Shown in pieces: positions 16,201 to 35,500 of a stretch of DNA of 64,000 nucleotides (position 1 is its first letter; every line of letters starts with the position of its first letter). Position numbers and translations under genes: made by a program. The notes beneath the pieces are model-generated. The model was given only the letters and a program-made list of their open reading frames with translations, did not search any database and was not told where the DNA came from. The stretch is from Candidatus Thalassarchaeaceae archaeon (GTDB lineage Archaea > Thermoplasmatota > Poseidoniia > Poseidoniales > Thalassarchaeaceae): positions 66,386 through 130,385 of the forward strand of contig JBJLBJ010000021.1 of assembly GCA_045568235.1 (NCBI GenBank), written 5' to 3'.

Positions 16201-17163
16201 TATTCTATCAGCACCTGACTCGATTAATATCTCAAATTCTTTGATGCTGTCTAAAATGTCTTTTGCATCTCCTCCTAACATTTCTTCAAGACTATTGGAA
16301 ACTTTCACCATTTCTTCATCGAATTCATTTACCTTTTTTGCACTGATAGAAAGATCAGAGGAAATTATTTCCTTTTCATCGATGTATCTAGATCTTTCAT
16401 CTCCAAGAAGTTTTAAATCATCAATTTTATTCTTGAATCTAGATTGTTGTAAAATTATTTTTGATTTATCTAAATCGTCTTTGAAATCTTTAAATTTTAA
16501 TGCCTGTTCTCTTTCCTTCCCCAAATCTTTGAGTCTTTTCTTTTGATCGTCCTCAAAAATATCGATTGTCTCTATACTATTATCTACCTTCTTTCTTTGG
16601 TTATTTGCCTTTCGAATTTCTTCATCATAAGCAGTAACACCCGCTACTTCTTCTAAAATACCTCTTCTCTTATGAGGAGTCATAGTTGCAAGATTGGTAA
16701 CATCTCCTTGTAGAACGATATTATATCCATCTCCTCTCAAACCTGCTTCGGCCAATATTCTACGCATTTCTGTAGCAGTACAAGGATTTTGATTTATGGA
16801 GTATGATGAAATAGGGTCTCCTTTTCTATTCAAACGCACTGATCGAGTAAAGGATACTTCTTCGGTTTCTATTCTAAGTCGCCTTCTTCCATCTGCCTCT
16901 GGAGCATTTCAAAAAACTAATGTTGCGCTCATATTCTTGGCTGGTTTTCCAGTCCCTCCTCCGTTAAATATCAATTCTGTAACATTGGAAGCCCTCAAAG
17001 CCCTGGTAGATTTAGGGCCTAAAACAAATTGTATGGCGTCTCCACAGTTGCTCTTTCCTGAACCATTGGGCCCGGTGATGCCAGTAAATCCCTCTTCCAA
17101 AGGAATGTTAACAATTCCTCCAAATGATTTGAAATTTTCTAACTCTATTCTATTGAGATGCAT
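13276..17163 (-). CDS. smc: SMC chromosome segregation ATPase, interrupted by a single in-frame TGA at 16909-16911. The N-terminal head fragment is 16912-17163 and the remainder is 13276-16908.
   Basis: N-terminal 'IELENFKSF..ITGPNGSGKSN', hinge 'GILGTLGELA', C-terminal 'LSGGEKSMAALALIFAIQ..FYYFDEVDQNLD'. My translation across the gap stays in frame: ..ATLVF*NAPEADGRRRLRIETEEVSFTRSVRLNRKG. Confidence 0.85.
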
Positions 17164-17368
17164 CCCATCACCTTATTCATCTACGAAAAATCGCTGACGA
17201 CATTTATCGTCTCGTGCCCTTGAGGATTATGAAGGTTGAGGAGGACTTTGTTTACTCAATGCGATTATTGGACGATTGGGAAAATGCCAGAAGTATTCAG
17301 ATTGGGCAGTACGAAGATTCTTGATTGAGTGCCATTAGGAGCCTTTATGCTAGCACCTCAATCCATTA

Positions 17369-18988
<1,620 letters not shown>

Positions 18989-18994
18989 ATAAAA

Positions 18995-19606
18995 TTATTC
19001 TGACCAAGGAAATTTATATGACCAGATAATAAAATCATTCAAAATACATTGGATTCCTAGTGCGATAGCCCCCAACAACATGTAGATAGAACTAGAAATA
19101 TCATCTTGATAGGCAGAATAAGCAATTAAACCCAACATCACATTGCCGACTGACGCTAAGAATAATAATCCAATGACCAAAAATGGAGTCCATGAGTAAT
19201 CGTTCTCAATATGAAAAATTGTACTTTCGATCCAAAGAGCAGAGGGTATCAAGATTAAGAGAAAGGAGAATAATAATCTAGAATTTCCTTTACCATCAGA
19301 CTCACTCCAAGGCCATCTAAATGATTCAACAGTTAGTGCGTCGAGGTGATAGAATACAGTCCACCAATAAATAATATAACCTAAAGCGGCAATAAACATG
19401 AAGGGTACGATATATCTCTGCCATGAAACTGGTATTCCCCCCCAAAGCCCAGAGGGATTTTGAGAGTGTGAAATGCCATATACATAAGATGCTAGAACTA
19501 TAGGACCTAATATGAATGTAATTATCTTAACGAGTTCTCTTGTAATCTCCATGTAAATATCCACTATGACATTACTCATAATACTCTGCATTAAATAATG
19601 GCACAA
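18995..19606 (-). CDS. Multi-pass membrane protein of unknown function (appears intact)
   Basis: 203-aa ORF with about six hydrophobic segments. No recognisable motif. Confidence 0.45.
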   Translation of the reverse strand: MCHYLMQSIMSNVIVDIYMEITRELVKIITFILGPIVLASYVYGISHSQNPSGLWGGIPVSWQRYIVPFMFIAALGYIIYWWTVFYHLDALTVESFRWPWSESDGKGNSRLLFSFLLILIPSALWIESTIFHIENDYSWTPFLVIGLLFLASVGNVMLGLIAYSAYQDDISSSIYMLLGAIALGIQCILNDFIIWSYKFPWSE

Positions 19607-19610
19607 AAAT

Positions 19611-20367
19611 CAGATTCCTGATAATTTTTGCATTCGTGTACGTACCATGGCTGAACCAAAGTCGTGACTCTCTAATATGTCAAAACCATAGAGCCCTTGC
19701 ATTGATCTTAGTATACCATAATTAGCAAAGTCTGCACCGTTAGGGAATATCTACCTCCAAAAAATTCTCCTTCAAATCCTTCAGCCATATTATCTAATTG
19801 GAATTTTAGATTATCTCGTGGCTTCAGTGGGAATTTTTTTGCTCGACTCCGGCCGACAAAAAACATTATTATTGCACCTAGCCACTTATTTATTATACGA
19901 CTAGATGAATGAGAAATTATCAACCTTAGTAACATAATCAAGTGCTTTAAGGGAAGTGAAATATGAAGAATATATGACGGCAACTATGGATTTTCCCAAT
20001 ATGGAATTAGAGAAATCCATCCATTCATCTTGTTTTTCATCCACTCCCGTGTCTGGGGAATTTATTGTCTCCCTTCTCATCTATGTAATGCAAAATGAAG
20101 TTGGAGTCATTTACTTGAGTTCCGTCCGAATCAATAAAAACAGGAACTTTCTCTCCAATTAGACCACTGTAATTCAGTGTGTTTCATAGGATTTACTTCA
20201 ACCTTTGAATATTTTATCCCTCTTGAACCGAGCAGCGCTTTGACCTTGAAACAAAATGGGCATGTTTCATAACAATACAAAGTGGGTAAATTATCTACTA
20301 ATTTATCCGGGACTCTCTTGCCCTCCTGTATTCCCGAGGTTGGTTCGTCCGTAATTGAATCGGCCAT
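19611..20367 (-). pseudogene. Glutaredoxin-2 / GST-like (PGES2-like) protein with frameshifts
   Basis: 'LYCYETCPFCFKVKALLGSRGIKYSKVEVNP' continues in another frame as 'SGLIGEKVPVFIDSDGTQVNDSNFILHYID'. The GST-C-like part ('FFGGR', '..YGILRSMQGLYGFD') is again split between frames. Confidence 0.6.
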
Positions 20368-20486
20368 ATTAATTGGGAAGTACTCAATACTTAGTGAAAT
20401 ATTCGGTTAAAAAATCTGAAAAAAAATTATTTTATGGTACATTTAATTCCCATTTCTTAGGTAATTTTTCTCAGCTGAAGTGATAA

Positions 20487-21418
20487 TCATATCCATCCTT
20501 TCGTTTCAATGCAGGAGTTTTGATATCCCATCATTGAAGCGTATAATTTAGACTCTCTAATCTCATCTGGTATGCAGATTTTCCCAGAGGTGGTTTCAAA
20601 ATCTATTGCGCGATCTAAGTCTAGTGCATGGCGATTTAGATTATTCAATAAACTATTTGATAGTCTAGTTATTGTAGCAAATAAAAACAGAATTATTAGG
20701 AAAACGGCAATAGTCCCCAATGCCGTATCTCCTAAAGCATCCATAACAAGTATGCCCAGTAGGAATACAATTGGAGCGGTGAAGGTGAATAGGAAGCGAT
20801 TTTCAGTTATTGGCTTTTTATTTTTCATTCTCTTCATTATTTCCCATCTAGAATCTCGATTTGTCCCTAGGGTTAAAAATTTCACTACTTTCCATCTTTG
20901 CAGCCTTTTCAACCATCTGTCTGACTGATTGCATACGTAATAGTTGTTGATTAGCGGGAGCGTCCATTTCTTCACCGAATAATTCATCAAGTTTTATTGC
21001 ACAATCTTCATAATAACCCATTCTAGCTAATATCCCTATCTGCTCAACTAGAGGGTGTTACTTGATAGTGGTTCGTTTTTTCTACGATTCTCCCACCATT
21101 CTAAACCATGCTCCAACATGCCAAGATGATCTATAAGGAGAGCCCCTCCTAGTTCCCACGCAAGATCATTATCAGGATCGTACTGGATAACTTTCTTCAA
21201 TGCAGCCATCGCCCTTGAACATTGTTTCAAATCTGGCATTAATGGTTTACCTCTAGTTAAGTGGAGGGAGATTAAGTCTGAGCTATTGCCATCCACGCAT
21301 CTGCATGTTTTTCATCCATTTCTACAACTGATCTGGCCTGTAATAATGCATTTTCTCTGTCTCCTTTTTCTTCTAAGTCCAAAACATCTAACCAAACCAT
21401 CTCAGGGCTCTTGGCCAT
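20487..21418 (-). pseudogene. TPR-like protein with a C-terminal membrane segment, fragmented into at least three frames
   Basis: The pieces are 'MAKSPEMVWLDVLDLEEKGDRENALLQARSVVEMDEKHADAWMAIAQ', the 21048..21296 ORF, 'LVEQIGILARMGYYEDCAIKLDELF', and the TM part of the 20487..20990 ORF. Confidence 0.35.
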
Positions 21419-21478
21419 ATTTCATCGGAGACACTCCTCAGAGAAGAAGGCTGGGGTCATTAACGATTCGAATGACGT

Positions 21479-21778
21479 CTAGGAGTTCGATTTTTTCGAT
21501 TTTTTCGGAGACCAAGTCGCTCTTGGGCTTCTAGAACGGGGTCTTTTTTTCGTCGTTTTTGAGCCAACTCCTTGCCTCGGTTTCCTAGTATCACAACTGG
21601 AGCGGTTGCATATTTCCTTACTTGCATAATTATGATTTTTGCACTTTGGGCATATCCAGTCACCGGGCCTTATTTTTGTATCACGAGTATTTTTATCATT
21701 ATTCTTCTTGATTACTACGACGATTAATATTTCGCCCTTTGTTCTTGTTGGGCTTTGGGGTTCTATCCCTTGGGGCAA
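21479..21778 (-). CDS. RanBP2-type-like zinc-finger protein with a basic Arg/Ser/Lys-rich tail. The 5' end is uncertain and it is possibly fused to the upstream gar1 remnant.
   Basis: 'GDWICPKCKNHNYASKEICNRSSC' (about nt 21593-21664) fits W-x-C-x2-C-x3-N-x6-C, except that the last pair is C-x4-C. The tail reads 'RKPRQGVGSKTTKKRPRSRSPRATWSPKKSKKSNS'. Confidence 0.4.
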   Translation of the reverse strand: MPQGIEPQSPTRTKGEILIVVVIKKNNDKNTRDTKIRPGDWICPKCKNHNYASKEICNRSSCDTRKPRQGVGSKTTKKRPRSRSPRATWSPKKSKKSNS

Positions 21779-21779
21779 T

Positions 21780-22008
21780 TTCTATGCTAGCACCTACTGC
21801 ACTTGTCGGCAACGAACTCCTCGAGATAATGGAAAGATATGAATCATGGGATTTTCAACACTGCCAATTACACGCTTTGAACTCTGCCAATATTTTTCCC
21901 GCCACCTATGATCCTTATATTCGTACCAAGACTAGGTGGTTTGCCCTCGAATGATGCTAAAATACCTCCTTCATGAGATGTTTTGGAGACTGTCCCCGAG
22001 AAACTCAT
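21780..22008 (-). pseudogene. gar1: H/ACA RNP protein Gar1-like, frameshifted
   Basis: 'MSFSGTVSKTSHEGGILASFEGKPPSLGTNIRIIGGGKNIGRVQSV*' (21868-22008) continues in another frame as 'IGSVENPMIHIFPLS'. This matches the archaeal Gar1 pattern (LG.V.h..G.l.v....PSL...v....iG.V.dvfGPv.nPY..v.P), and a basic tail follows. Confidence 0.45.
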
Positions 22009-22011
22009 GAT

Positions 22012-24035
22012 TTAATCGCGACGTGTTGTGTACATGAGAGCACCGGCTATAGAAATAAATATCAAATATAAATTAGCAAAAGGAAATTGATCTTTCGTCA
22101 TTAGAGTCCTGAGGAGAGTGGTTGTACTAATTCTTCGGCATATAAGTGGCTGTTATTTACTTCAAATAAGATTGATTGTACACATACTCCCGATTCATCG
22201 CAGCCCTCTAGTTTAATCTCGTATTCACCTTCTGGCCATAAATTAAAGTTTATTTCCGGTATTTCCCAAGTATTCCCCGATGGGTCTATTGTACCCATCA
22301 AAGAATCATCGATAGAAGAATGAAAAGGAGACTTCCTCTCCATCAGGATCACTAAATTGGCCTCGGGCCGACCAGTGAGAAGGTTCGGAAGTTGAGAATC
22401 CCCATTGATGATGCCACTGAGGAATGGAGGAGAGCTGTCTTTAATTATTCCTAAATCATAAATACCTCATCAATTGGTAAACATTTTCTCCATCAACCAT
22501 CATTTTGACTTTCACGTCCCCTGGAGTTAATCCAACTGAAGAAATATTAACATAGATGTCGAAGATTCAACTAAAAATTCCGAAAATATTGGCTCTCCGT
22601 CTTGGTACAAAGATATCGATACTGACAAATGTAGGCCAATTATCAGATACTTGGATGTATATTGGGTGAGGGTTTTGAAGTGATTGGAGAAGTAGTGGAT
22701 AATGAAATTGGCATACCAACATTCCATGTCCTATTGCCTGATGTTTGTCCTGATCGAGTCTCTTGCTTCACAAGTAATTTCCTGTAAATGTTCAATATTT
22801 GCATATAAGGAACCATCAATACTTTGTCTGATATTCGAATTCAAATCACCAAAACAGGAAATATCAAGGTTTGAAACTCCTAATTCATCACTGAACCATG
22901 TTGAAATTTGTTCCCAATCCGCCCACATTATGTCTCCTGTTTCAGATAAGGGAAACCAAGTGCCATCAATAGGCGCATCTTCAGTCCATACGGGAGGATT
23001 ATCAATTGGCACAGGAAGAGTGGTGAAATCGGCAAAAATATCTTCACCACTAGGCCAGTTAATTCTATCTGAATTTGGAAATACAGTGTAACTCAAAATA
23101 TCATTGTTTGAGTCTAAAGAATAATTAGAAGATTGATCGCCAATACAACTACCTCTCAGAGGAGACACATAATTACTCCCGTGAATCTACGTCTAGGCCT
23201 ACATACCTGCCTTCACACTCTTCCCACATGTCTAATCTTAAATCATTACTTAGAGGGAAAGTAAAAGTCAATTCAGCATTGCTCATATTTGATGCATTCA
23301 GTGCTAGGGTAAATGATTCTGGATCACTAATTCCAGATAATTCCAAAGTGGAATTCAAGTATAAAACAAATCTACATTCATCCAATCCAAGAGAATTATC
23401 TATATCGGCATCACAATCTCTGTTTTCTGATGGGAATAACAGGTATTTCATAACAAGGAGTATTTGGATTATAAGATTCACAAGTTCTAATTTCGGAATG
23501 CCTAGAAGGTACACCGTTTACTTCATTCACGATTATGCTGCCTCCTTCCCAAGTTGTATTTTTCCAGTCAACACCTACTCCTCCTCTGTGGAGCTGGCCC
23601 GTCTCTAATCCCAATTCTAGTTATTGTGTGCTCTATACAATCAGCAGCAATTGACATCACTGCATCTCTCTCATCAGTAGATAACCAACCATCTCCTCCA
23701 CTTGGCACAAGTCCTTCCAAATAACTATCTAGTCTTTCCCTAACAACATCTGCCATTGACCAATTTATCCATGCTGTTGCAAATACTTCTGCGGATTGCC
23801 AGTCTTCATCGACTTGGAAATGAAATTCTGCCTTAGTATATTCAAATATATCTTCAAAAGTTATCTGACTACATCGCTCTTCGAAGCTAGCTTCACCCCC
23901 TCCTCCTCCGAATTGGTCCATCCGGATTAATTTATCTTCCAAATTGGAGTTGTGTGATAAAAGAGGCATGAAACTGATAAAAATGAAAATGAAACAAATA
24001 CAACTCACCGATAGAGTTGAGTTTTTTCTTCGCAC
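22012..24035 (-). pseudogene. Secreted, C-terminally membrane-anchored protein split into at least seven ORF fragments
   Basis: Signal peptide in the 23568..24035 ORF. The next fragments are 23411..23614, 23173..23514, 22731..23168, 22527..22727 and 22101..22352. The last is a TM anchor, 'MTKDQFPFANLYLIFISIAGALMYTTRRD' (22012-22101), which overlaps the preceding stop as TAATG. Confidence 0.5.
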
Positions 24036-24085
24036 GCCCCTAACAGGGGCCGATAGGTCATTACTATATCGTACAAATGTTTACT

Positions 24086-24115
24086 CTTAAATTGGATAAT
24101 AATACTTAATTTAAG
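24086..24115. promoter_or_regulatory. Perfect 8-bp inverted repeat CTTAAATT-N14-AATTTAAG, about 117 bp upstream of the transferrin-like gene
   Basis: Read directly. The AT-rich context makes chance occurrence plausible. Confidence 0.2.
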
Positions 24116-24231
24116 CGCCTTTCGTTGACCAAGAAGCAACATAATACTGTAAAGAAAAAAACTCACATTGAAAAACCATGTAAAGTACGCGGTGTACAGA
24201 TATTGGTAATTTTCATTAAAGGAGAGGCGAT

Positions 24232-26334
24232 ATGAGAAAGAAGTCGGTTACATTATTTATTAGCATTATTCTCTTAACCAGTATCTTTTCTGGGTGTTTA
24301 GGAGATGAAAATGATGAAAGAACCTTGGGAAAATTAATAATTGCTTATGAAATAAAAGATAATTCTCAAGAAGTTGATGGTAATCCCGAAATATTGGCAA
24401 ATTATCTCACTGAGAAACTAAATTATGATGTTAGTATATTCAGTGTTGATTCAGAAGGAGCAATGATAGAGGCACTAAGATTTGGGAATGCAGATATTGC
24501 AATAATGGATGCTGGATCTGCATGGATAGGTTGGCAACAATACGATCTGGGAGTCCTAGCTGCTGATCTGAATGTAGATGATAGGACATATTACAATGCA
24601 AATGCTTGGGTTCGTTCTGAGAGTGATATTGCGAAGGCTTTTTTGGATGATGATCCATATTCAGATCCATTTGCACTTCTTTCGGGGAAGGCGTCTTGTC
24701 ATACTGGTTGGCTAAATTCAGTAGGCATGTTACTACCAATGGGTTTCTTGATTGGTCATGGATATGCAAATGTCATAGGAGATCCAAATGATGTAGAAAC
24801 AATAAGAAATACTATTTATGCATTTTTCGACATCAATTCAACTATCCCTGAAATAGGGACGCCTTACTATGGCGATTCAGGTGCTCTGAAATGCTTATCC
24901 GAAGGAATTGGAGATGTTGCATTTATTGAAGAAAATACAGTTGAGATATTTTGTAATAATGATTTGGAAGATGATAATCAGCTTTGGTGCTTGGAAAAGG
25001 AGGAATACGTTGCATTACCTGCATTTGGGCAATCTCCCAGTAACTCAGTAGTTTATAACCCATCAATATTACAATATAGTCTAACCAATGATATTGCAGA
25101 AGTACTTGTTAATATGAAAAATGATCCTACTGCTTTCGATATACTCAATAATATCCTTAATACTCCAGGTTTTGAAGCAGTCAATACTACTTCACATTTG
25201 AGTAGTTATTCGAAATTAATTTCTAATATACCTGGAATTTCAGCATATTATAATGATAAATACACATTGAATAGTACTCTTTCTTCTTCTATGGAAAAAG
25301 TTATAATTGCTATTAAAAATGATATCGGTAGCAATAATAATTCACAAATAATTTCAGATTATTTACAGGACATTTTAGGTGTAGAAGTTAGTATATATGA
25401 TGTAAATTCTGAAGGTGAGATTATTGGGGCATTAAAAGATGGTAGTGCAGATTTAGCAATTTTAGATAATTCTATCGCTGTATGGATAGCTTGGAAGGAG
25501 TTTGGATTAACTGCTATGGCTGCGATGCAAGGAATGGATGAGCGAACACATTTCAATACTGCTGCTTATGTAAAAATAGATAGTAGTATAGCATCTGCTT
25601 ATCTAGATGGTGATATCGATACAAATCCTTATTCTCTATTAGAAGGAAAAACTTCCTGTCACTCAGAATGGATGAGTTTGGCAGGGATGGTTATGCCTGT
25701 TGGATATCTAATTGATGAGGGATACATGAATAATGTCAATGATTCAAAGAATATTGATGATTTGAATAATACAATATTAAGCTTTTTTAATCCAAATTCT
25801 TCAATACCTGAGAATGGTTCATCATATCATGGGAATTTAGGTGCTTTGAAATGCCTTTCTGATGATTTTGGAGATATTGCTTTTGTTGAAGAAGGTTATT
25901 TAGAATCTTATTGTGGAAATGAAAATGAAGAAGATAATTTAGATTGGTGTCTTAGTTCGGATGAATATATTTCTCTTCCATTTGATATTAAGATACCAAC
26001 AAGTACGGTAATTTATAATCCTGAAAATTTGGATGTACAAAGTAGAACTGCAATACTAAATGCTTTCGTCTCTCTTAATTTTGAAATGTATTTGGAAAAT
26101 TATTCTTTTTCAGGTAAAACACATACAGGGTGTTATGATATTTCCATTCATGTTATTGATGAAGGGTCCGATAAGGAAACTTGTGGTTCTGAAATTCTAA
26201 AAAATATTTTTAGTTCTTCTGGCGTTGTAAGAATTACTTCCCAAGAACATCTAAGTCATTTCTCCAACTTAATCAACAATATTCCCGGGATAAATGAATA
26301 TTACATAGAATATTTTGAAATTTTTAATGAATAA
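24232..26334 (+). CDS. Bilobal transferrin-family / PhnD-related substrate-binding lipoprotein (two tandem ~330-aa lobes)
   Basis: Lipobox 'LTSIFSGC'. Lobe 1 has 'IMDAG', 'TYYNANAWV', 'GKASCHTGWLNSVGMLLPMGFL' and 'GALKCLSEGIGDVAFIEENTV'. Lobe 2 has 'GKTSCHSEWMSLAGMVMPVGYL' and 'GALKCLSDDFGDIAFVEEG'. Lobe 2 starts near nt 25291. Confidence 0.85.
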   Translation: MRKKSVTLFISIILLTSIFSGCLGDENDERTLGKLIIAYEIKDNSQEVDGNPEILANYLTEKLNYDVSIFSVDSEGAMIEALRFGNADIAIMDAGSAWIGWQQYDLGVLAADLNVDDRTYYNANAWVRSESDIAKAFLDDDPYSDPFALLSGKASCHTGWLNSVGMLLPMGFLIGHGYANVIGDPNDVETIRNTIYAFFDINSTIPEIGTPYYGDSGALKCLSEGIGDVAFIEENTVEIFCNNDLEDDNQLWCLEKEEYVALPAFGQSPSNSVVYNPSILQYSLTNDIAEVLVNMKNDPTAFDILNNILNTPGFEAVNTTSHLSSYSKLISNIPGISAYYNDKYTLNSTLSSSMEKVIIAIKNDIGSNNNSQIISDYLQDILGVEVSIYDVNSEGEIIGALKDGSADLAILDNSIAVWIAWKEFGLTAMAAMQGMDERTHFNTAAYVKIDSSIASAYLDGDIDTNPYSLLEGKTSCHSEWMSLAGMVMPVGYLIDEGYMNNVNDSKNIDDLNNTILSFFNPNSSIPENGSSYHGNLGALKCLSDDFGDIAFVEEGYLESYCGNENEEDNLDWCLSSDEYISLPFDIKIPTSTVIYNPENLDVQSRTAILNAFVSLNFEMYLENYSFSGKTHTGCYDISIHVIDEGSDKETCGSEILKNIFSSSGVVRITSQEHLSHFSNLINNIPGINEYYIEYFEIFNE

Positions 26335-26412
26335 TGACAAAATAAATCCCCGACAATACCAAATAATGGTTTAGGCTCGCCTAAACTTTCCACTAACCTA
26401 GGTGATTGTTAC

Positions 26413-27201
26413 ATGAAACACGTCATTGCAGAAACCGAAGTTAATGAAAAACCAATAGTTAAATTAGTTGATGTGGAAATAGGATATAAAAATAATGAAA
26501 CATTGGTAAAAATTCCGGATCTGGAAATATTTCCGGGAGAGATTGTAGCTATCGCTGGCCCATCGGGTGTTGGAAAAACTACGTTATTGCGAACTATTGC
26601 TGGATTGGTAAAGTCTATTTCTGGAAAAGTAGAAGTTTGTGGAAAGGTGATTCCTCATAGGCCTAAAAGAGGAAATTTGGGATATATTCCTCAAAGATTA
26701 GGTCTAGTTCGTCATGCAAGTGTGATGCATAATGTAATGTTAGGAGCTAATGCTGGTCAGAAAAAGGAAGTTTTTCATAAAAATAAATTTATCCAGATGA
26801 TTGGTAATTCCCTGACATCATTACTTCCTTCTAAGGATGCGAAAATAAAGTCGCTAGATGCGATTGAAAAAATGGGTTTAACTGATAAAATTAGAGAACC
26901 TGTTCGAAAGTTATCAGGAGGGCAGCAAAGAAGAGTAGCAACAGCAAGGACATTGGCACAAGAACCTGTGTTAGTTCTGGCAGATGAATTTCTTAGTGAA
27001 TTAGATGAGGAAACTATGGAAACGGTTTTGAGAGGTGTTGTAGAATATATCAGAAATAATAATGCTGCATTGCTTGTCATAGAGCATGACGTATCAAGAG
27101 CCAAGTCTATGGCAGATAGGTTGTTAGTAATTGACGATGGTAGGCTGAATCCGTTCATTACTGAAGTTACTATGTTAGAGGTGAAAGAATGGTTACGCTG
27201 A
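26413..27201 (+). CDS. phnC: ABC transporter ATP-binding protein, PhnC-type
   Basis: Walker A 'GPSGVGKTT', signature 'LSGGQQRRV', Walker B 'LVLADEF'. It also has the PhnC-like insertion between the Q-loop and the signature motif. Confidence 0.8.
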   Translation: MKHVIAETEVNEKPIVKLVDVEIGYKNNETLVKIPDLEIFPGEIVAIAGPSGVGKTTLLRTIAGLVKSISGKVEVCGKVIPHRPKRGNLGYIPQRLGLVRHASVMHNVMLGANAGQKKEVFHKNKFIQMIGNSLTSLLPSKDAKIKSLDAIEKMGLTDKIREPVRKLSGGQQRRVATARTLAQEPVLVLADEFLSELDEETMETVLRGVVEYIRNNNAALLVIEHDVSRAKSMADRLLVIDDGRLNPFITEVTMLEVKEWLR

Positions 27202-28073
27202 AATCTAAAGTAATTTCTATTTGTTTTATTTTGATAATATTTTCTTTCTCAATATTGAATGGAATGGTAGATGATTGGGGAAGATTATCAGGTGGTTTAT
27301 CGAATTTATTCATTTTCTTCAGTGAATCTTTATGGCCTCCTAACTGGAGCGTGATTGAACCTCAAGTATATCCGGTATGTACGACTTATCCATTGTTTGA
27401 TTTTACTTGTTCTACTGCTTGGATTGGAATGAGTGAAACTATCAAAATAGCCTTCGTCTCAACAATTTTTGGCTCAATTATTTCTTTACCAATTTCGATC
27501 CTAGCTGCAAGAAATCTGAGCCCCCTAGGAGTCTCATATTTAGCAAGAATTTTTTTAGCTGCTGCACGTAGTTTACCAAGTATAATTTGGGCTATATTTT
27601 TTGTAATCCTAGTTGGTTTTGGACCTCTTTCTGGAGTTCTAGCAATGACAATCTATACTGTTGGATACCTAGGTAAACTTCAATATGAGTCAATAGAAGG
27701 AATGAATAGTATACCACTTGAATCGGCAAGATCGATGGGCCTTTCAAAAGTAGAAATTGCTACAGGAGTGGTGATACCAGAAATGGCAAATAATTTAATT
27801 TCTCAGATAATTTTTATGTTTGAGTATAATGTTAGGCATGGGACTGTGATTGGGATTGTAGGTGCCGGAGGTATTGGTTATTACATCAACTTATATCTCA
27901 AATTTCTTCAATATGACAAAGTTATTTCATACCTAATAATTATATTCATAGTAGTACTGATAATTGATTTCTTATCAATTAGCGCTAGGTCTTATTTCAA
28001 TGAAGAAGGAGACATATCTAAACCTTCATGGTGGGATGTATTGCCATTCTCATTTTTGAAGAATCCGAAATGA
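27189..28073 (+). CDS. phnE: ABC transporter permease, PhnE-type
   Basis: 'ESARSMGLSKVEIATGVVIPEMANNLISQIIFMFEYNVRHGTVIGIVGAGGIGY' matches the PhnE EAA-loop/NVR/GAGGIG pattern. Overlaps phnC by 13 nt. Confidence 0.8.
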   Translation: MVTLKSKVISICFILIIFSFSILNGMVDDWGRLSGGLSNLFIFFSESLWPPNWSVIEPQVYPVCTTYPLFDFTCSTAWIGMSETIKIAFVSTIFGSIISLPISILAARNLSPLGVSYLARIFLAAARSLPSIIWAIFFVILVGFGPLSGVLAMTIYTVGYLGKLQYESIEGMNSIPLESARSMGLSKVEIATGVVIPEMANNLISQIIFMFEYNVRHGTVIGIVGAGGIGYYINLYLKFLQYDKVISYLIIIFIVVLIIDFLSISARSYFNEEGDISKPSWWDVLPFSFLKNPK

Positions 28074-28298
28074 TCAAATATCAGAGGCGATTATTCTTAT
28101 TGATCCATCTTTATATGAAATCTGTATATTGTCTTTTACTTTGATAGTTAATGCAGACAATGCCTCATATACTTCTTTTTCTGTTACTTTAAATGCTTCA
28201 GCGGCACGCTTAGTTGACCATGGTACTTCAACAAAATTAGATGATGAAAGCCACTTTAATAGACGTTTTTCAAAATCGGTTAGATCTGAAGCAGACAT
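28074..28298 (-). CDS. Small (74 aa) protein, possibly winged-helix-like, co-transcribed with gpsA
   Basis: ORF 4 nt downstream of gpsA. The helical N-half 'FEKRLLKWL..KRAAEAFKVTEKEVYEAL' is followed by a beta-like C-half. Confidence 0.3.
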   Translation of the reverse strand: MSASDLTDFEKRLLKWLSSSNFVEVPWSTKRAAEAFKVTEKEVYEALSALTIKVKDNIQISYKDGSIRIIASDI

Positions 28299-29411: not shown

Positions 29412-29496
29412 GCAGGGGTACCCGAGTGGTCAAAGGGGCTGGGTTTAGGTCCCAGTGCGTAGTGCTTCGCAGGTTCAAATCCTGTCCCCTGCACCA
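29412..29496 (+). tRNA. tRNA-Leu (anticodon UAG), type II with a long variable arm and encoded CCA
   Basis: Acceptor GCAGGGG/CCCCTGC. Anticodon stem CTGGG/CCCAG with loop TTTAGGT. Variable arm TGCGTAGTGCTTCGCA. T-loop TTCAAAT. Discriminator A followed by CCA. Confidence 0.9.
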
Positions 29497-29500
29497 TTAA

Positions 29501-32500
29501 TTATTCTAATCTTATCCTCTTGGAACGGAATTTGGCTAATTTTGACTTCTGCCAATTTATTAATCTAAGTCCCATTAAACTCAAGAATGCCATACTCAAT
29601 ATACTGACAATATAAACTGAAGGTGGGAATGGTCTATTTTCATCTAAAGGCCACTTATCTTCAGTATCGAGAACGCCGTCTCCGTCATCATCAGGATCTT
29701 GGTAATTTGGAATCGTGTCATTATCAATATCTAAAAAGTCAGTATCCACATATACTGGGAGAACAGGTGCTGGTTCTTCTACAGCTCCTAAATTAGGATC
29801 TGCAATGCACCCAAGTAAATTACCAATTGCTAAGAGATGTGCAAAATTTTCGTCAGATGGATTTAAACCTGGAACGAAAATACACTGATCGGCATTATTT
29901 CCGACTGAATCGCCATCAGAATCCGCCCACTCAAGTGGGTCATTATCAAATAAATCGAAATTGTCTCCTATGTTATCTCCATCTGTATCATTCCACTCAG
30001 ATGGATCTAGTTCAAATGCATCAATTGAATCATTATATCCATCGTTATCATCATCTACATCTAAATTATTACCTAATGTATCTCCATCAGTATCTAGATA
30101 TTCAGAAGGATCTAATGGGAATGAATCTCCCAATAAATTACAATTATCCAATACTATATCATAGCTTGGATGACTATTAGTGAGATTAACTAAATCAGAA
30201 GGATAAATAAGTGGATAAGAGAGAGGGAGATATGCCAATACAGAAGGGTGATTTATTGGCACAGAAACTCCATTGAGATTTGTAATAATAACAGAACCTA
30301 TATCATGATTCTGACCATAATTTAGATCAGAATTATCCCTGAATGAAGTTCCCCCATTAGTATCACAAACCCCATCACCATCATCATCAGCATCAAAATT
30401 ATCTCCTAATTTATCACCATCATAATCTGCCCATTCATATTTATTATTTGGAAATGTATCAAAATTATCAGAACGCCCGTCATTATCGTCGTCGTTGTCA
30501 GTATTGTCGCCAATACCATCCGAATCAGTATCTGCCCATTCAAATTGGTTCAGAGGGAATAAATCTAATGGACGTAACTCGTATACGATATTTCCACTAG
30601 AATCAAGAACAGGTGCTAAGAAAGTATCATTCACTCCATCATTATCATCATCAGGATCTAGGTTGTCAGGTATATTATCTCCATCTGTGTCAGCAAAAAC
30701 TTCTGGGTCGAGAGGGTCATAATCATTCGCATCATCTACTCCATCTCCATCATCATCATTATCGACATAGTCTGGTATAAAGTCACCATCTGTATCTAAA
30801 ATACAATCTGTTAAAGAATTAGAGGCGAGTTCAATGGTTGAAGTTGATTCAGGACAGGCGATTTGGTCAGTTGCCTGATCTGAGTCAACATAGAATCCCT
30901 TTGCGGCAGGAAGACAGTTTGCTTGACCTATTATATTTGTATAATATCCAACTGTACACGAAGTCTGTTGTAGGGATGCAGTTTCTGGTGCGCTGAATCC
31001 TTTGGATGCTGAGATACAAGATGTTTGGCCAGAATCCGGTTGGTAAGTTCCCGGATCACAGGCCGTTTGAGTTCCTGAACCATGGTTTAAATCGATTAAA
31101 TCTGGAGAATTACTATCTAATAATCCACCATTACCTAATTGCCCATCTGAATTCATCCCCCAACAATATAATGTAGCATCATCAAGAACTGCGCAAGAAT
31201 GGCTATTCCCAACTGACAATGATATAGCAAACCTCCCAGGAGGAAGATTAACAGGTTCGGGATTATTTCTACTTATTAATGAAGAATCTCCAAGTTGACC
31301 TCGAGAGTTATCTCCCCAGCAAATTACATGACCATTATCCATCAGAGAACAAGTATGATGGAAGCCTGAACCAACATAAGAAGGTATATCTGATTCAGAT
31401 AATTGTATCAATAGAGGCGTATTAGAACTATATAATTCGGAATTACCTAATTGCCCTCCTGAATTGAAACCCCAGCAATAAATTGAATTATTAATTAATA
31501 TAGCACAAGTGTGGAAAGAACCACTTTCTAAAAATATGGTTTCATATTCAGATTCGAATAAAACACTAATAGGTTCTAAGTTTCTAATATTTGTACCATC
31601 TCCTAGTTGACCATGCCAATTATCACCCCAGCAACCTACTGAAAGGTTTTCTAAAATAGCACATGTATGATAAGATCCGGAAGATACTGAGATTGCTGTT
31701 TGCTCTCCTTGTAACGTAACAGACTTTGGAGTATTGCTGTCTATAGTAGTACCATCTCCTAGTTGGCCGTTGGAATTACTCCCCCAGCACTTTATAGTAT
31801 CATCATTCAAGAGGACGCATGAATGAGTTTGGCCCAATGAAATACTTTTTGCAAATTTGTCAACCCCTAGATTAACAAGAGTAGGAGTTGTTCTCTCGAT
31901 TAGAGTACCGTCTCCTATCTGGCCATTGGAATTACTTCCCCAACACCTGAGAGTTCCATCATCAAATATGGCACAAGTATGTTTGGCACCTGTTGATACC
32001 GAAACAGCAGATTTGCCCAAAGGAGTAGAAGCAAGAATAGGAGAAAGACTATTTGTCCTAGTTCCATCTCCTAGTTGACCATTTTCATTATCTCCCCAGC
32101 AGCGCACCGAGCCATCATCCAGTATTGAACATGAATGAGTATTTCCTGAATTTATTGAGTTAATTATTGGAACATTAAATCCTGCATCGGAGCCGATACA
32201 TGCCGAAGAGCTCTGTGAGCCAATATCTGGATTATATGTTCCTCCCGAACAAGCAATCTGGGAACTTGAACCTGGAGAATCTACATAATAACCAGGATTG
32301 GCATCGTTACATTTGTCCATACCAGATAATGGTTGAAATGTTCCAATGTTGCAAAGCTCTTGCGACGTAGCGCCATCACTAGAGACATAGTGTCCTGGGC
32401 TGGCAGGAATCTTGATTATACTACCAGGAGTATCTACATAAAAACCAACAGTTGCTGGCTGACAAGAATATCTTCCATATTCTCCAACGGCACAAGATAC

Positions 32501-35500
32501 TGCTATTGCAGGATTGTTATCATCTACATCTTGACCCGAAGTGACTCCATCGCCATCGCCATCTCCCGCTATATGAGTATCAAAGATATTTAACTGGGAA
32601 TCATCATCTAAGTCTCTTTCTGCCGCATTAATGTAGGACCAACGGGATATGGGCAAACTAGTCGGAGATGAGGACATGGAAATAGAACTACTTGAATCTC
32701 CCCCCCAGCAAGATAACAGATCATTATTCGTAGACGAACAAGTATAATTCTCGCCAGATGCGATAGTGATTGGGAAACGTGCGCCTGCAAAAGTAACTTG
32801 ATTTGGAGATATTTGATCCACTGTAGATCCAATGCCCAATTGACCTTCTGAATTATCTCCCCAGCAATTTAAAACATTAGAATTATCTAGCGAACAAGTA
32901 TGCATACTTCCTAAAGAAATTGAATTTGAGCCAGAAATTATGGATACTGGAGAATTGGAATCGGTATTTGTTCCATCACCTAATTGACCTTCTGAATTAT
33001 CTCCCCAGCATTTCAAACTTGTATCGGACAATATTGAACATGTATGTGAGTCTCCAGAAGAAATAGCAACAGGATTAGGGCTTAGCGATATTGTAACAGG
33101 AGTTAATCGGCCGATATTTGTTCCATCGCCTAATTGGCCTTCTGAATTATCTCCCCAGCATTTTAAGAGTGGATCATTGATTATTGCGCACGTATGATAT
33201 GCACCAGTAGAAATTGCTATTACTTTGCTTGAACCCAGATTTACACTAGAGGGTAGAGTAGAATCTGTAGTAGAGCCATCTCCAAGTTGTCCTTCTGAAT
33301 TATCTCCCCAGCACTTTATTGAAGCAGTAACTAAAACTACACAAGTATGTTTCAATCCGACAGATACAGAAATAGGGATTTCAGAACCTAAATCTACATC
33401 TACAGGCGTAGATGAATCGAATGTAGTACCATCGCCCAATTGACCTTCTGAATTATCTCCCCAACATTTCAAACTAGCATCATCAAGTATTGCGCAAGTA
33501 TGGCCTTGCCCTGCAGAAATAGAAATAGCGGTTCGACCGATGCCTAAATCCACTGCAGTCATCGTCTGACGCTGTACAGTAGTCCCATCACCCAACTGTC
33601 CTTTGTAATTATCTCCCCAACAACTCATTGAAGAATCATCAAGTATTGCACACACATGATCTGAGCCGACAGCAATTGTAGTCTCGGTGAATATTGATCC
33701 TTCTTGGAATCCAGCCTCTTCTAAGTTACCAGAAACTGGCTGACTCATGTCCATTAACATATAATTGCCACTAGTCGCTATGGAAAAATTTTGAGGCCCT
33801 TCAGGGACATTTGTGCCAGTAACTATTATCTCCCAATCTCCTGCATCTGGACTAGTAACTGTCATACCGAGTAGATTATTTGTGTCACCATTTTCTTCTC
33901 CCCAAACATTTCCAGAAGGATCTTTAAGTGTGAAATCTAAATCATTAACCAAACACTGAGTAGCACAAGATGTAACTGCAATATTTGGACTATCCGTCCA
34001 TGAAAGTACCACTCTAAATTCTGGAGTACCAATAGGTATCGTCAATCTCATAGATTTTGTTTCAGAGGTTTCAATATCTAGACGATCTATAAATGAGCTA
34101 TTAATTGCTTGAGATACATCTATCCTGCCCCATCCTTCATGGTTGTTCGGTATTGCTTGAGCAGCGGCATTGAGCGGGACTGACGACGTGGGATCGTATT
34201 GACCCGCCATATCTACAGACGTAGCAGAGAATATTCCCTTAATCAAAGCAGAACTAGGAGAAGGGTATCCAATGTTATTCAGGTACTGTATCAATTGGGC
34301 TGAGGCTCCTGCGACCATAGGAGTAGCCATTGAAGTTCCAGATTTGTAAGTGTAATCTCCATTTGAAGGAAGAGGAATATTGGGAGGATCGCTGATGTCA
34401 TCTTGTGAGTAAACTGAAATCATTCGAGTCCCGGGTGCAACTAAATCAGGCTTTATTCTACCATCTTGTGTAGGCCCTCTGTTTGAATTACACCAAACAC
34501 CTTCTATATTATTTGACTCATAATCACTTGTTATCGGCTCCTCAGGAAACTTGTCCCCATACATGCCACAGGTTACTCCCAAAGAAGGACGCCAATTTTC
34601 AGAAGCCCCAATTGCGAAACTATTTTTTGCGGTAGCTTGGAGTTGCAACCATGAAGTATCAACTTCTCCATTTGAATTTGAGTCTTTACCCTCATTACCC
34701 ATAGCAAAAAGGATTACAAGATCATCATATTGATAAGCTCCTTCATCAATTTGTTTACTGTATGAAGTATAATAATTAGGACCATATAGGTTGCCTTGAT
34801 AATTAAATGGGTTGAGGAATGGGTCTGTACCCCATGAGTTTGTTTGTACTCTTGCACCTGCTTCATATGCGGGACCAAAAAGTGTATTGATAATATCTCC
34901 AGGCGTTCGAAGTTCATTTCCGCTTGTACAAGGATTTTCATTATTCATCGCGTAAAACCACAGTTCGGCCTCATATGCCATTCCTTTGTATAGGCCCGCC
35001 GAATTATCTCCCGAACCTAAAGCAGTTCCTGCAACATGAGTACCATGTCCAGTAGGGTCATGAGGATCATCGTCGGGGCAAATATTATTGCGATCGGTTG
35101 ATGCTGAAATAATGGTTTTTATTCTACCTTGAAAATCGGCATTTATTGTTGGGTTTGCAGCATTGCATGTCTCTATAGAATCACATTCATTTGAATTATC
35201 TAAGCCCCCGTCTGCTATAGCTATTACCATACCATCGCCAGTTAGAGTATTCGCTGAACCGTCCATGAAAATTGAATCCCATAATAAATCAGAGTGGACT
35301 ACATCAGCAGCTTGATCGTCATAAGTTACATCTGGGTATGTGGGTTCAATCCACTCAACAAAGGATTGATGAGAAAGCCATTCAATTTGCTTCTCATCGG
35401 CCACAACAGAAGAATATATTCCAGAAAGCATAGTTACTTCAATTCCCTCAGAAAGTAAACTATTTCCTTCGTCATCTCCTGATAGTACTAAATTAATTAG

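Follow-up and report, generated by a model that had tools for sequence, protein, structure and literature searches.

What does an ATP-binding cassette (ABC) importer carry when its translocator looks like that of a phosphonate transporter and its binding protein looks like an animal transferrin? The question is raised by a three-gene operon of a Candidatus Thalassarchaeaceae archaeon (assembly GCA_045568235.1), which lies in a stretch of 64,000 nucleotides of contig JBJLBJ010000021.1 (positions 66,386 to 130,385, forward strand). We refer to this stretch as the window and use its own numbering. An earlier note, made from the letters of the window alone, had described the first gene as coding for a two-lobed lipoprotein with the hallmarks of eukaryotic transferrins, not those of ordinary PhnD, and the next two as PhnC- and PhnE-type genes. 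As judged from its sequence, the binding protein is a member of the transferrin family and lies outside the curated models that define PhnD. The features on which the argument turns are the following.

24232-26334, + strand: gene for the two-lobed transferrin-family substrate-binding lipoprotein (open reading frame (ORF), 700 amino acids)
24232-24297, + strand: signal peptide and lipobox, residues 1-22, ending in IFSGC with the lipidated Cys22 (read from the sequence)
24319-25275, + strand: lobe 1, residues 30-348 (hidden Markov model (HMM) envelopes and table of site residues)
25285-26328, + strand: lobe 2, residues 352-699 (same sources)
26413-27201, + strand: PhnC-like ABC ATPase gene (ORF, 262 amino acids)
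27189-28073, + strand: PhnE-type permease gene (ORF, 294 amino acids), overlapping the ATPase gene by 13 nucleotides

The three ORFs, the peptide motifs quoted from them and their coordinates all agreed with the translation, including SCHTG (24694-24708) and GALKCL (24880-24897) in lobe 1 and SCHSE (25654-25668) and a second GALKCL (25840-25857) in lobe 2. When residues 1-350 were compared with residues 351-700 by BLASTP, the two halves proved to be 39% identical over 342 amino acids (E 2e-84); the internal duplication proposed in the earlier note is therefore real. Its assignment of the product as a lipoprotein fits as well, since the N-terminal segment closes with IFSGC, whose Gly21 and Cys22 do not vary among 26 homologues.

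The protein and each lobe separately were compared with the two Pfam families in question. On the Transferrin model (PF00405, cutoff 20.3) the whole protein scored 95.3 bits, lobe 1 60.9 and lobe 2 40.1; on the Phosphonate-bd model (PF12974, cutoff 27) the whole protein scored 89.9 bits, and each lobe passed both models. The PhnD of E. coli (from the annotated K-12 genome) scored 268 bits on Phosphonate-bd and had no Transferrin match. A phmmer search of the Protein Data Bank (PDB) returned 96 matches (best E 6e-17), and the 60 listed all belonged to the eukaryotic transferrin family (transferrin, lactoferrin, ovotransferrin, melanotransferrin, saxiphilin and the transferrin-like inhibitor of carbonic anhydrase). 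When the query was a profile built from eleven archaeal lobes, the best E-value was 2.8e-34 and the best 60 matches were again transferrins only, at about 64 bits per lobe as taken from the domain scores of the best match and from single N-lobe chains. The curated PhnD models were missed by a wide margin (TIGR03431, 54 bits against a cutoff of 261; TIGR01098, 74.6 against 112). No FbpA-type binding-protein profile of Pfam or NCBIfam matched the window's binding protein, and E. coli PhnD found no match in the related loci by tblastn. The profile searches thus return more than a generic PhnD hit, and the transferrin hallmarks that the note had singled out hold up.

The structure was less discriminating. 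An AlphaFold2 model of the whole protein (pLDDT 83) has an N-terminal helix at residues 3-20 followed by a low-confidence linker, and a model of lobe 1 reached pLDDT 86 and pTM 0.83; both show the type-II periplasmic-binding-protein fold, with two subdomains per lobe and the lobes in tandem. In Foldseek searches of the PDB the best 50 matches of the whole model were all of the transferrin family (best E 6.9e-29); the orientation of the lobes keeps the whole-protein TM-scores low, at about 0.3, so that the informative values are the E-values and ranks. For lobe 1, the top match was apo-PtxB, a phosphite binder of the PhnD family (E 7.9e-15, TMq 0.63), level with transferrin lobes (about 3e-14, TMq 0.57-0.66). 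The structural search suggested in the note therefore favoured transferrins for the whole protein and ended in a tie for the single lobe, and we dropped the fold search as a means of separating transferrin from PhnD. Since the fold ties while the PDB and profile matches are to transferrins, the fold stands between the two families and the sequence on the transferrin side.

The two partner genes are of the types that the note had named. The ATPase (Pfam ABC_tran, 93.9 bits) carries in its translation a Walker A motif GPSGVGKT, the signature LSGGQ and a Walker B motif LVLADE; its best NCBIfam model is that of PhnC (TIGR02315, 142 bits), under the cutoff of 266. The permease scored 218.4 bits on the PhnE equivalog model TIGR01097, above the cutoff of 216.7, its orthologues score 226-238 bits, and it is 95% identical to the permease of the nearest relative described below.

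How widespread is this arrangement? A protein search found at least 657 relatives; the 120 listed are mostly about 700 amino acids long, and none of them lacks either Pfam domain. When one genome per species was scanned, 413 stretches proved to code for a relative; 80 of these were retrieved, and counts of loci out of 80 refer to them. Almost all come from Poseidoniales (Thalassarchaeaceae and Poseidoniaceae, the two families of marine group II, MGII), together with at least one genome of marine group III (MGIII). The nearest relative is that of Euryarchaeota archaeon TMED129 (L001), with 84% protein identity. In the survey of synteny across MGII and MGIII that the note had called for, the order binding protein, ATPase, PhnE was kept in essentially every locus with room downstream, and a glycerol-3-phosphate dehydrogenase gene lies 3' of the operon in both MGII families. 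As this order and this downstream gene are common to both families, the operon appears to be old and vertically inherited. The MGII genome literature lists phosphonate transport as a core trait (PMC6336850), and this trait is very probably the operon described here. Larger forms exist too: an archaeal version with three lobes (P0011, 1156 amino acids) and three eukaryotic proteins of 1894-2661 amino acids (P0126 from the ichthyosporean Chromosphaera, P0137 and P0149), in which the lobe profile matches 4-7 stretches; most of the scorable lobes keep the ligand set. Two retrieved loci assigned to bacteria, L015 (a Rhodobacteraceae metagenome-assembled genome) and L067 (a Rhodobiaceae one), carry an MGII-type operon among MGII neighbours, and these contigs are probably binning contaminants.

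Transferrins hold iron and a synergistic anion through six positions, numbered here as in the human transferrin N-lobe (Asp63, Tyr95, Thr120, Arg124, Tyr188, His249), which we mapped in three ways: by HMMER alignments to lactoferrin and melanotransferrin, by a family HMM, and by a MAFFT alignment that included E. coli PhnD. Most of the family has the full set. The combination D-Y-T-K-Y-H with the cysteine pair is found in lobe 1 of 169 and in lobe 2 of 114 of the 193 two-lobed members; at species level, both lobes have a complete site in 51 of the 80 loci. The same combination, with the equivalents of Cys118 and Cys194, recurs in single-lobe lipoproteins (one from a Thermoplasmatota archaeon), and with the cysteine pair also in multi-lobe proteins of ichthyosporeans and corallochytreans and in a fish serotransferrin. 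E. coli PhnD has G, Y, T, S, H and D at the six columns. The SCH...KCL cysteines, predicted to form a disulfide, were found in both window lobes, as the note had claimed, and in every archaeal lobe tabulated; in lobe 1 they are Cys156 and Cys221, the equivalents of transferrin Cys118 and Cys194.

The window's own copy is different. Its lobe 1 has D93, Y121, T158, N162, D215 and N271 at the six positions, and its lobe 2 has D, F, S, S, N and S. The three alignments agreed with the earlier reading that lobe 1 keeps Asp, Tyr and Thr and has Asn, Asp and Asn in place of Arg124, Tyr188 and His249, and the statement that lobe 2 keeps essentially only the Asp was also correct. Of the four metal ligands (Asp63, Tyr95, Tyr188, His249), two remain in lobe 1 (D, Y, D, N) and one in lobe 2 (D, F, N, S). 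At the anion positions (Thr120 and Arg124, Lys being accepted) lobe 1 has Thr158 and Asn162 and lobe 2 two serines, where relatives have Thr and Lys. Judging from these residues, lobe 2 is probably non-binding; lobes without a binding site also occur in melanotransferrin, saxiphilin and the inhibitor of carbonic anhydrase. The nearest relatives of the window protein have D-Y-T-N-H-N in lobe 1 and D-Y-S-S-N-S in lobe 2, lobe 1 of the three nearest (L001-L003) reading D-Y-T-N-H-N/Q. At the columns of the E. coli PhnD ligand residues, which we take to be Y93, S127, H157 and D205, the window has Y, N, D and N and so does not have the PhnD set either. In terms of these site residues, the window protein is a derived, atypical member of a family in which most relatives keep the complete ligand set.

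The two lobes of one protein are 26% to 86% identical, with a bimodal distribution. Where the lobe 2 site has been lost, identity is about 40-46%; P0012, P0058 and P0070, in which both sites are complete, have lobes that agree at 70-86% of positions, with identical runs of up to 160 residues. This pattern, together with the 160-residue identical run in P0012, suggests gene conversion between lobes in relatives.

The gene neighbourhoods of the relatives bear on the ligand. Directly upstream of the binding-protein gene, 21 of the 80 loci encode a lipoprotein of 550 amino acids with a Fea1 domain, that is, of the ISIP2a/phytotransferrin family; Pfam scores of this domain in the MGII lipoproteins are 75-100 bits (examples are L081 7544-9199, L001 6116-7759 with 75 bits, and L068 3434-4894). 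A flavodoxin gene adjoins or sits within the cluster in five loci. In L068, L073 and L074 the order is Fea1, transferrin-like binding protein, a 786-amino-acid protein, a Peripla_BP_2 binding protein and a FecCD permease, then an ATPase, flavodoxin, a CREG-barrel/DUF2470 protein and the PhnC-like and PhnE-like genes; in L013 the same gene set is located upstream. The CREG_beta-barrel (PF13883, 88 bits) plus DUF2470 protein lies at L068 13225-14052 and recurs in L013, L061, L065, L066, L072 and L073. A 2021 survey counted zero archaeal PF13883 genes (PMC7883536), and in diatoms a CREG1 homologue co-localises with phytotransferrin (PMC7972479). In five MGII/MGIII loci a gene for a DtxR-family repressor (PF01325 and PF02742) closely adjoins the two-lobed gene on its upstream side and is transcribed divergently; the single-lobe systems L088-L090, with permeases that pass the PhnE model too, have such a gene inside the operon. 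Altogether, 31 of the 80 loci have at least one iron- or metal-related gene (Fea1, flavodoxin, FecCD, CREG or DtxR type) within the available flanks. When the sites were compared (L001-L017, L025, L028 and L052-L057 against L068, L073 and L074), a neighbouring Fea1 gene was seen to go together with loss of the second site: of the 20 binding proteins that are linked to Fea1 and have a readable signature, 17 have a degenerate lobe 2, and both sites are complete in all five DtxR-linked ones. A search confined to the C-P (carbon-phosphorus) lyase subunits PhnG-J and to the available flanks found none of these genes in the window or in 90 loci. In a survey of single-cell genomes from the tropical ocean (GORG-Tropics), 80% of the archaea were MGII and no phosphonate consumers were found among the archaea (10.1101/2020.11.04.368217). 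Read from gene content, the neighbourhoods in relatives point to iron or another metal.

Where do these lobes stand between PhnD and transferrin? The lobe profile matched 533 proteins at E<=1e-3 among 1.84 billion representatives, and those examined among the matches listed are archaeal binding proteins, holozoan multi-lobe transferrins, vertebrate transferrins and a few PhnD-like binding proteins. Because it matches 533 proteins only, the lobes do not sit inside the ordinary PhnD family. Scores on the two Pfam models change gradually from one end of the series to the other (Phosphonate-bd bits / Transferrin bits):

E. coli PhnD: 268 / none
P0253: 171 / 22
Heimdallarchaeota protein: 95 / 36
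single-lobe archaeal forms: about 86-112 / 55-91
window protein: 90 / 95
ichthyosporean proteins: 92-111 / 211-253
vertebrate transferrins: 24-42 / 670-696

P0253, P0257 and P0243/P0272 (Heimdallarchaeota) are single-lobe, PhnD-like proteins with D-Y-T-G-Y-H, without the SCH/KCL cysteines and with Phosphonate-bd scores of 61-171 bits; such cysteine-free proteins may represent an earlier grade between PhnD and transferrin. Ninety-four lobes (257 columns; ISIP2a, being of a different Pfam family, was not included) were placed in a neighbour-joining tree with E. coli PhnD as the root and 100 bootstraps. The eukaryotic lobes formed one clade (71%), the metazoan-type lobes another (98%), and the MGII lobes a third, together with the single-lobe relative P0134 (79%). 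In this single-lobe phylogeny, of the kind proposed in the earlier note, the archaeal lobes thus fell neither within the PhnD-like outgroup nor within the eukaryotic clade; the order of archaeal single-lobe, MGII and eukaryotic groups along the backbone had bootstrap values of 11-34%. Since MGII and eukaryotic lobes form separate clades, the two-lobe architecture is independent in origin of the animal duplication. The closest eukaryotic relatives are the ichthyosporean transferrins, which gave the best eukaryotic matches to the lobe profile (E down to 2.9e-140). A PhnD origin of transferrins was proposed by McQuaid et al. 2018, according to the passage that summarises it in PMC7676907. The note had seen in the window protein an intermediate of the kind this proposal predicts, a view consistent with the graded Pfam scores and with the tie between PtxB and transferrin folds. 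The gradient of scores, like the setting in an ABC operon, speaks for a prokaryotic origin, but the direction of any transfer is not readable from the tree.

We then considered the state of the window's own copy. By blastn, the window up to 24113 corresponds to L001 up to 6026, and the window from 24104 on to L001 from 7870 on; relative to TMED129, a deletion of 1.84 kb (L001 6027-7869) has taken out the whole Fea1 gene, and the two segments overlap by 10 bases in the window at the junction (24104-24113). The absence of Fea1 is real, since it is missing as well from two independent contigs, L086 and L087, both from short-read metagenomes and collinear with window 14174-28244. Over 23700-28244 the window differs from these contigs by two mismatches, none of them in the binding-protein gene, and the ORFs are identical; the sequence of the operon is therefore trustworthy. 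The adjoining 6.8 kb (16798-23642), which end 590 bp before the binding-protein gene, hold 211 of the 213 mismatches to L086/L087 and all 50 small insertions, with zero deletions, and the ORFs there (among them those of FAD-binding, GST-like and 646-amino-acid proteins) are all broken in the window and intact in the two contigs. Because these upstream genes are intact in two independent assemblies, the frameshifted stretch is most likely poor sequence, an insertion-prone error patch of the source assembly rather than a run of real pseudogenes; for the broken ORFs at 22101-24035 we rejected the pseudogene interpretation on the same comparison. The ratio of nonsynonymous to synonymous substitution rates (dN/dS) against L001 is lowest for the permease (0.055), followed by the ATPase (0.13) and the binding protein (0.146; lobe 1 0.10, lobe 2 0.19). 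The operon is under purifying selection.

From these observations we consider it likely that the family is a metal-regulated ABC importer that passes a hard cation, most likely Fe3+ with a synergistic anion, to a translocator of the PhnE/PhnC type. Since most family members keep the full transferrin iron site, the substrate is probably iron and not phosphonate, and the label 'phosphonate transport' is most likely a mislabel of this operon. The binding protein would be a prokaryotic branch that grew out of PhnD-type proteins and still works with a PhnE-type permease and a PhnC-like ATPase. An intact lobe would shut on its metal through Asp, two Tyr and His, with Thr and Lys for an oxyanion such as carbonate; once closed, the protein would bind to the PhnE dimer, and import would be powered by ATP hydrolysis. 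DtxR-family repressors would put the operon under metal control, together with flavodoxin and surface iron-binding proteins of the Fea1 type. In the window copy a cation-anion ligand is probably still delivered, given that the gene is under purifying selection; this would occur through the remodelled lobe 1 site, with lobe 2 serving a structural role. Whether that ligand is still iron is somewhat doubtful, because half of the lobe 1 site has been replaced and lobe 2 is probably structural. The account as a whole (a transferrin-family ABC importer, with Fe3+ and an anion likely for the family and a derived variant with a remodelled site in the window) is the best explanation we have, and we hold it with moderate confidence. 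What was observed is homology, architecture, distribution, residue conservation, gene context and selection; which ligand the family carries, and still more which one the window copy carries, we infer from these.

Several points weigh against this account. The permease, by its sequence, passes the equivalog model of PhnE, and we know of no transporter of the PhnCDE family (TC 3.A.1.9) that carries a metal. In the models the lobe fold matches phosphite-binding PtxB as well as transferrin. The residues D/Y/T/Y/H could in principle hydrogen-bond an oxyanion, as the same columns bind phosphonate in PhnD; the cysteine-free PhnD-like proteins also have D-Y-T-G-Y-H. The best NCBIfam matches of the DtxR-family regulators are the MntR models, all below cutoff, and this family includes manganese sensors. 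As to the window copy, its lobe 1 lacks two metal ligands and the basic anion residue and its lobe 2 nearly all of them, so that iron binding may have been lost, and no homologue of Fea1, flavodoxin, FecCD, CREG or DtxR was found in the 64-kb window.

Some of these points would be accommodated if the operon were, as its translocator suggests, an importer of phosphonate, phosphite or phosphate of the PhnCDE type, its likeness to transferrin reflecting common ancestry and its Tyr, His, Asp and Thr residues hydrogen-bonding the oxyanion directly. This possibility keeps weight because of the PhnE-type translocator, the equal match to PtxB and the ligand columns common to PhnD; the Phosphonate-bd score, the rank of PhnC among the ATPase models, the His that stands at the Tyr188 column in the window's nearest relatives as it does in PhnD, and the literature on MGII core traits speak for it too. 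We nevertheless consider it quite unlikely. The binding protein falls far under the PhnD cutoffs and PhnD itself finds no match in the loci, no C-P lyase genes turned up in the available flanks and no phosphonate-consuming archaea in GORG-Tropics, the neighbours are iron and metal genes with DtxR-family repressors in place of pho or phn genes, and a cleft with two to three acidic residues and the exact transferrin quartet is unlike what PhnD and PtxB use. A change of specificity within an iron-importing family is another way to read the window copy. The subclade with lobe 1 D-Y-T-N-[H/D]-N would have switched to Mn2+, Zn2+ or a non-metal ligand, which would explain why three of its six lobe 1 residues are replaced consistently in about 13 sequences, why purifying selection is maintained, why Fea1 was lost in the window population and why the regulators associated with relatives score best on MntR. 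However, L001-L003, with D-Y-T-N-H-N/Q in lobe 1, keep Fea1 directly upstream, Asp, Tyr and Asp or His with an anion could still coordinate Fe3+, and no observation points positively to any other ligand. Non-canonical iron sites occur in other transferrins and in FbpA proteins. We regard such a switch as unlikely.

The remaining alternatives concern history and state. An MGII ancestor might have acquired a transferrin lobe from a eukaryote and fused it later to a resident PhnCE system, as the low bootstrap values of the tree backbone would allow and as the ligand set and disulfide cysteines common to archaeal and ichthyosporean lobes might suggest. Such a transfer appears very unlikely in view of the separate eukaryotic and MGII clades, and of archaeal lobes that score alike on both Pfam models where eukaryotic ones become progressively transferrin-only. 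Single-lobe forms also occur in PhnCE operons with DtxR-family repressors (P0140/P0271 are from a Thermoplasmatota archaeon), and PhnD-like proteins with the ligand set and without the cysteines lie just outside. Finally, the loss of ligand residues in both lobes, the deletion of Fea1 and the frameshift-rich 6.8 kb next to the gene might be taken to mean that the window copy is a decaying, non-functional remnant. With three intact ORFs, dN/dS values of 0.055-0.146 and a binding-protein gene identical in two independent assemblies whose upstream genes are intact, we find this extremely improbable.

How does the transferrin-based importer compare with known systems? It shares with eukaryotic transferrins (PF00405) significant sequence similarity in both lobes, the tandem of two type-II binding-protein lobes, the Asp, Tyr, Thr, Lys/Arg, Tyr and His columns in most family members and the cysteine pair in every lobe; it differs in being lipid-anchored and encoded in an ABC-transporter operon, whereas transferrins are secreted glycoproteins taken up by receptors, and in its independent duplication, its lineage-specific C-terminal region with a Cys hairpin and the presence of only part of the transferrin disulfide set. 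PhnD, PtxB and HtxB with PhnC and PhnE (TC 3.A.1.9) resemble it in the Phosphonate-bd match, in permease and ATPase types, in gene order, in a lobe fold as near to apo-PtxB as to transferrin lobes and in coinciding ligand columns, but the window protein has two lobes, not one, transferrin-type residues, the SCH...KCL cysteines and, in relatives, metal-related neighbours. FbpA, HitA, SfuA and FutA with FbpBC are comparable in the proposed capture of Fe3+ by Tyr, His, a carboxylate and an anion for ABC import, whereas the window protein is two-lobed, of another binding-protein family and served by a permease and ATPase of the PhnE/PhnC type. Surface-exposed binding of Fe3+ with carbonate in the sea has been proposed for phytotransferrin (ISIP2a/FEA1, PF07692) as it is here, but the window protein has no Fea1 domain and its genome has lost the Fea1 gene. 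The transferrins of ichthyosporeans and corallochytreans (Chromosphaera, Creolimax, Amoebidium, Ichthyophonus, Abeoforma, Corallochytrium) share D-Y-T-K-Y-H and Phosphonate-bd scores of 92-111 bits; unlike the archaeal protein, they are eukaryotic and secreted, have one to at least five lobes and no ABC partner, and group with metazoan transferrins and not with the archaeal lobes.

We found no description of an archaeal or MGII transferrin-like binding protein, or of an archaeal Fea1, in the full-text literature, a coverage that does not extend to the tree of McQuaid et al. 2018; PF00405 was not among the families counted in one study of binding proteins from the sea (PMC11485210). Transferrin has so far been treated as a eukaryotic invention, and here a genuine member of its family is a core gene in one of the most abundant groups of archaea of the surface ocean, still linked to the kind of ABC transporter that its PhnD-like ancestors would have used. 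Its origin from PhnD becomes testable with living intermediates, namely single-, two- and three-lobe forms with and without the disulfide cysteines, and the position of ichthyosporean transferrins as the nearest among eukaryotes bears on how animals obtained theirs. The co-located Fea1, CREG-like and flavodoxin genes parallel, in an archaeon, the iron-starvation toolkit of diatoms. If the ligand is iron, the 'phosphonate transport' trait of MGII has been misread, the iron economy of MGII needs revision, and these archaea may depend on carbonate chemistry as diatoms do. We put forward only tentatively the broadest version, in which the MGII 'phosphonate transporter' is a transferrin-based Fe3+ uptake system that needs a synergistic anion and operates with Fea1/ISIP2a homologues, CREG-like proteins, flavodoxin and DtxR-type control, and in which animals and their unicellular kin acquired their transferrins from a prokaryotic stock, the Thermoplasmatota lineage of these binding proteins.

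Three further features lie within or beside the operon.

24036-24231, + strand: intergenic region upstream of the binding-protein gene, with the deletion junction (blastn against L001 and upstream alignment)
26131-26184, + strand: Cys-hairpin module CYDISIHVIDEGSDKETC, an insertion in the last lobe (pattern search and alignment)
26369-26386, no strand assigned: hairpin with a seven-bp stem in the 78-bp gap between the binding-protein and ATPase genes (promoter and terminator scan)

The Cys-hairpin module (consensus CY[ND]xx[ST]Hx(8-11)C) is present in a single copy in the last lobe of the window protein, where the AlphaFold2 model has beta-strands at residues 618-643. It occurs three times in lobe 3 of the three-lobed P0011 (residues 1021-1106) and five times in the C terminus of the Fea1 lipoprotein of relatives (residues 339-494 of the L081 protein). 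The sharing of this motif by the binding protein and Fea1 suggests a common docking or anchoring module.

In the upstream region, blocks at about 24108-24131 and 24157-24190 are conserved in the alignment with L001-L003; considered as regulatory motifs they were dropped, as their occurrence in the rest of the window does not exceed chance. A scan of the window for sigma-70 and terminator consensus sequences, which is not made for archaea, gave no enrichment over shuffled sequence. The hairpin at 26369-26386 may serve transcription attenuation, a suggestion that has no statistical support from the terminator-like sites, which are not enriched over shuffles.

Downstream of the operon, an ORF of 2189 amino acids on the - strand (29501-36070) shows in its translation a subtilase-like GTSMATP motif, many RCC1-like CWGDNxxGQLGDG repeats, Asp-rich repeats of calcium-binding type and a C-terminal hydrophobic anchor; it is absent at this position in L081. 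Between it and the glycerol-3-phosphate dehydrogenase gene lies the sole tRNA found in the window, a tRNA-Leu with anticodon TAG (29412-29496, + strand).

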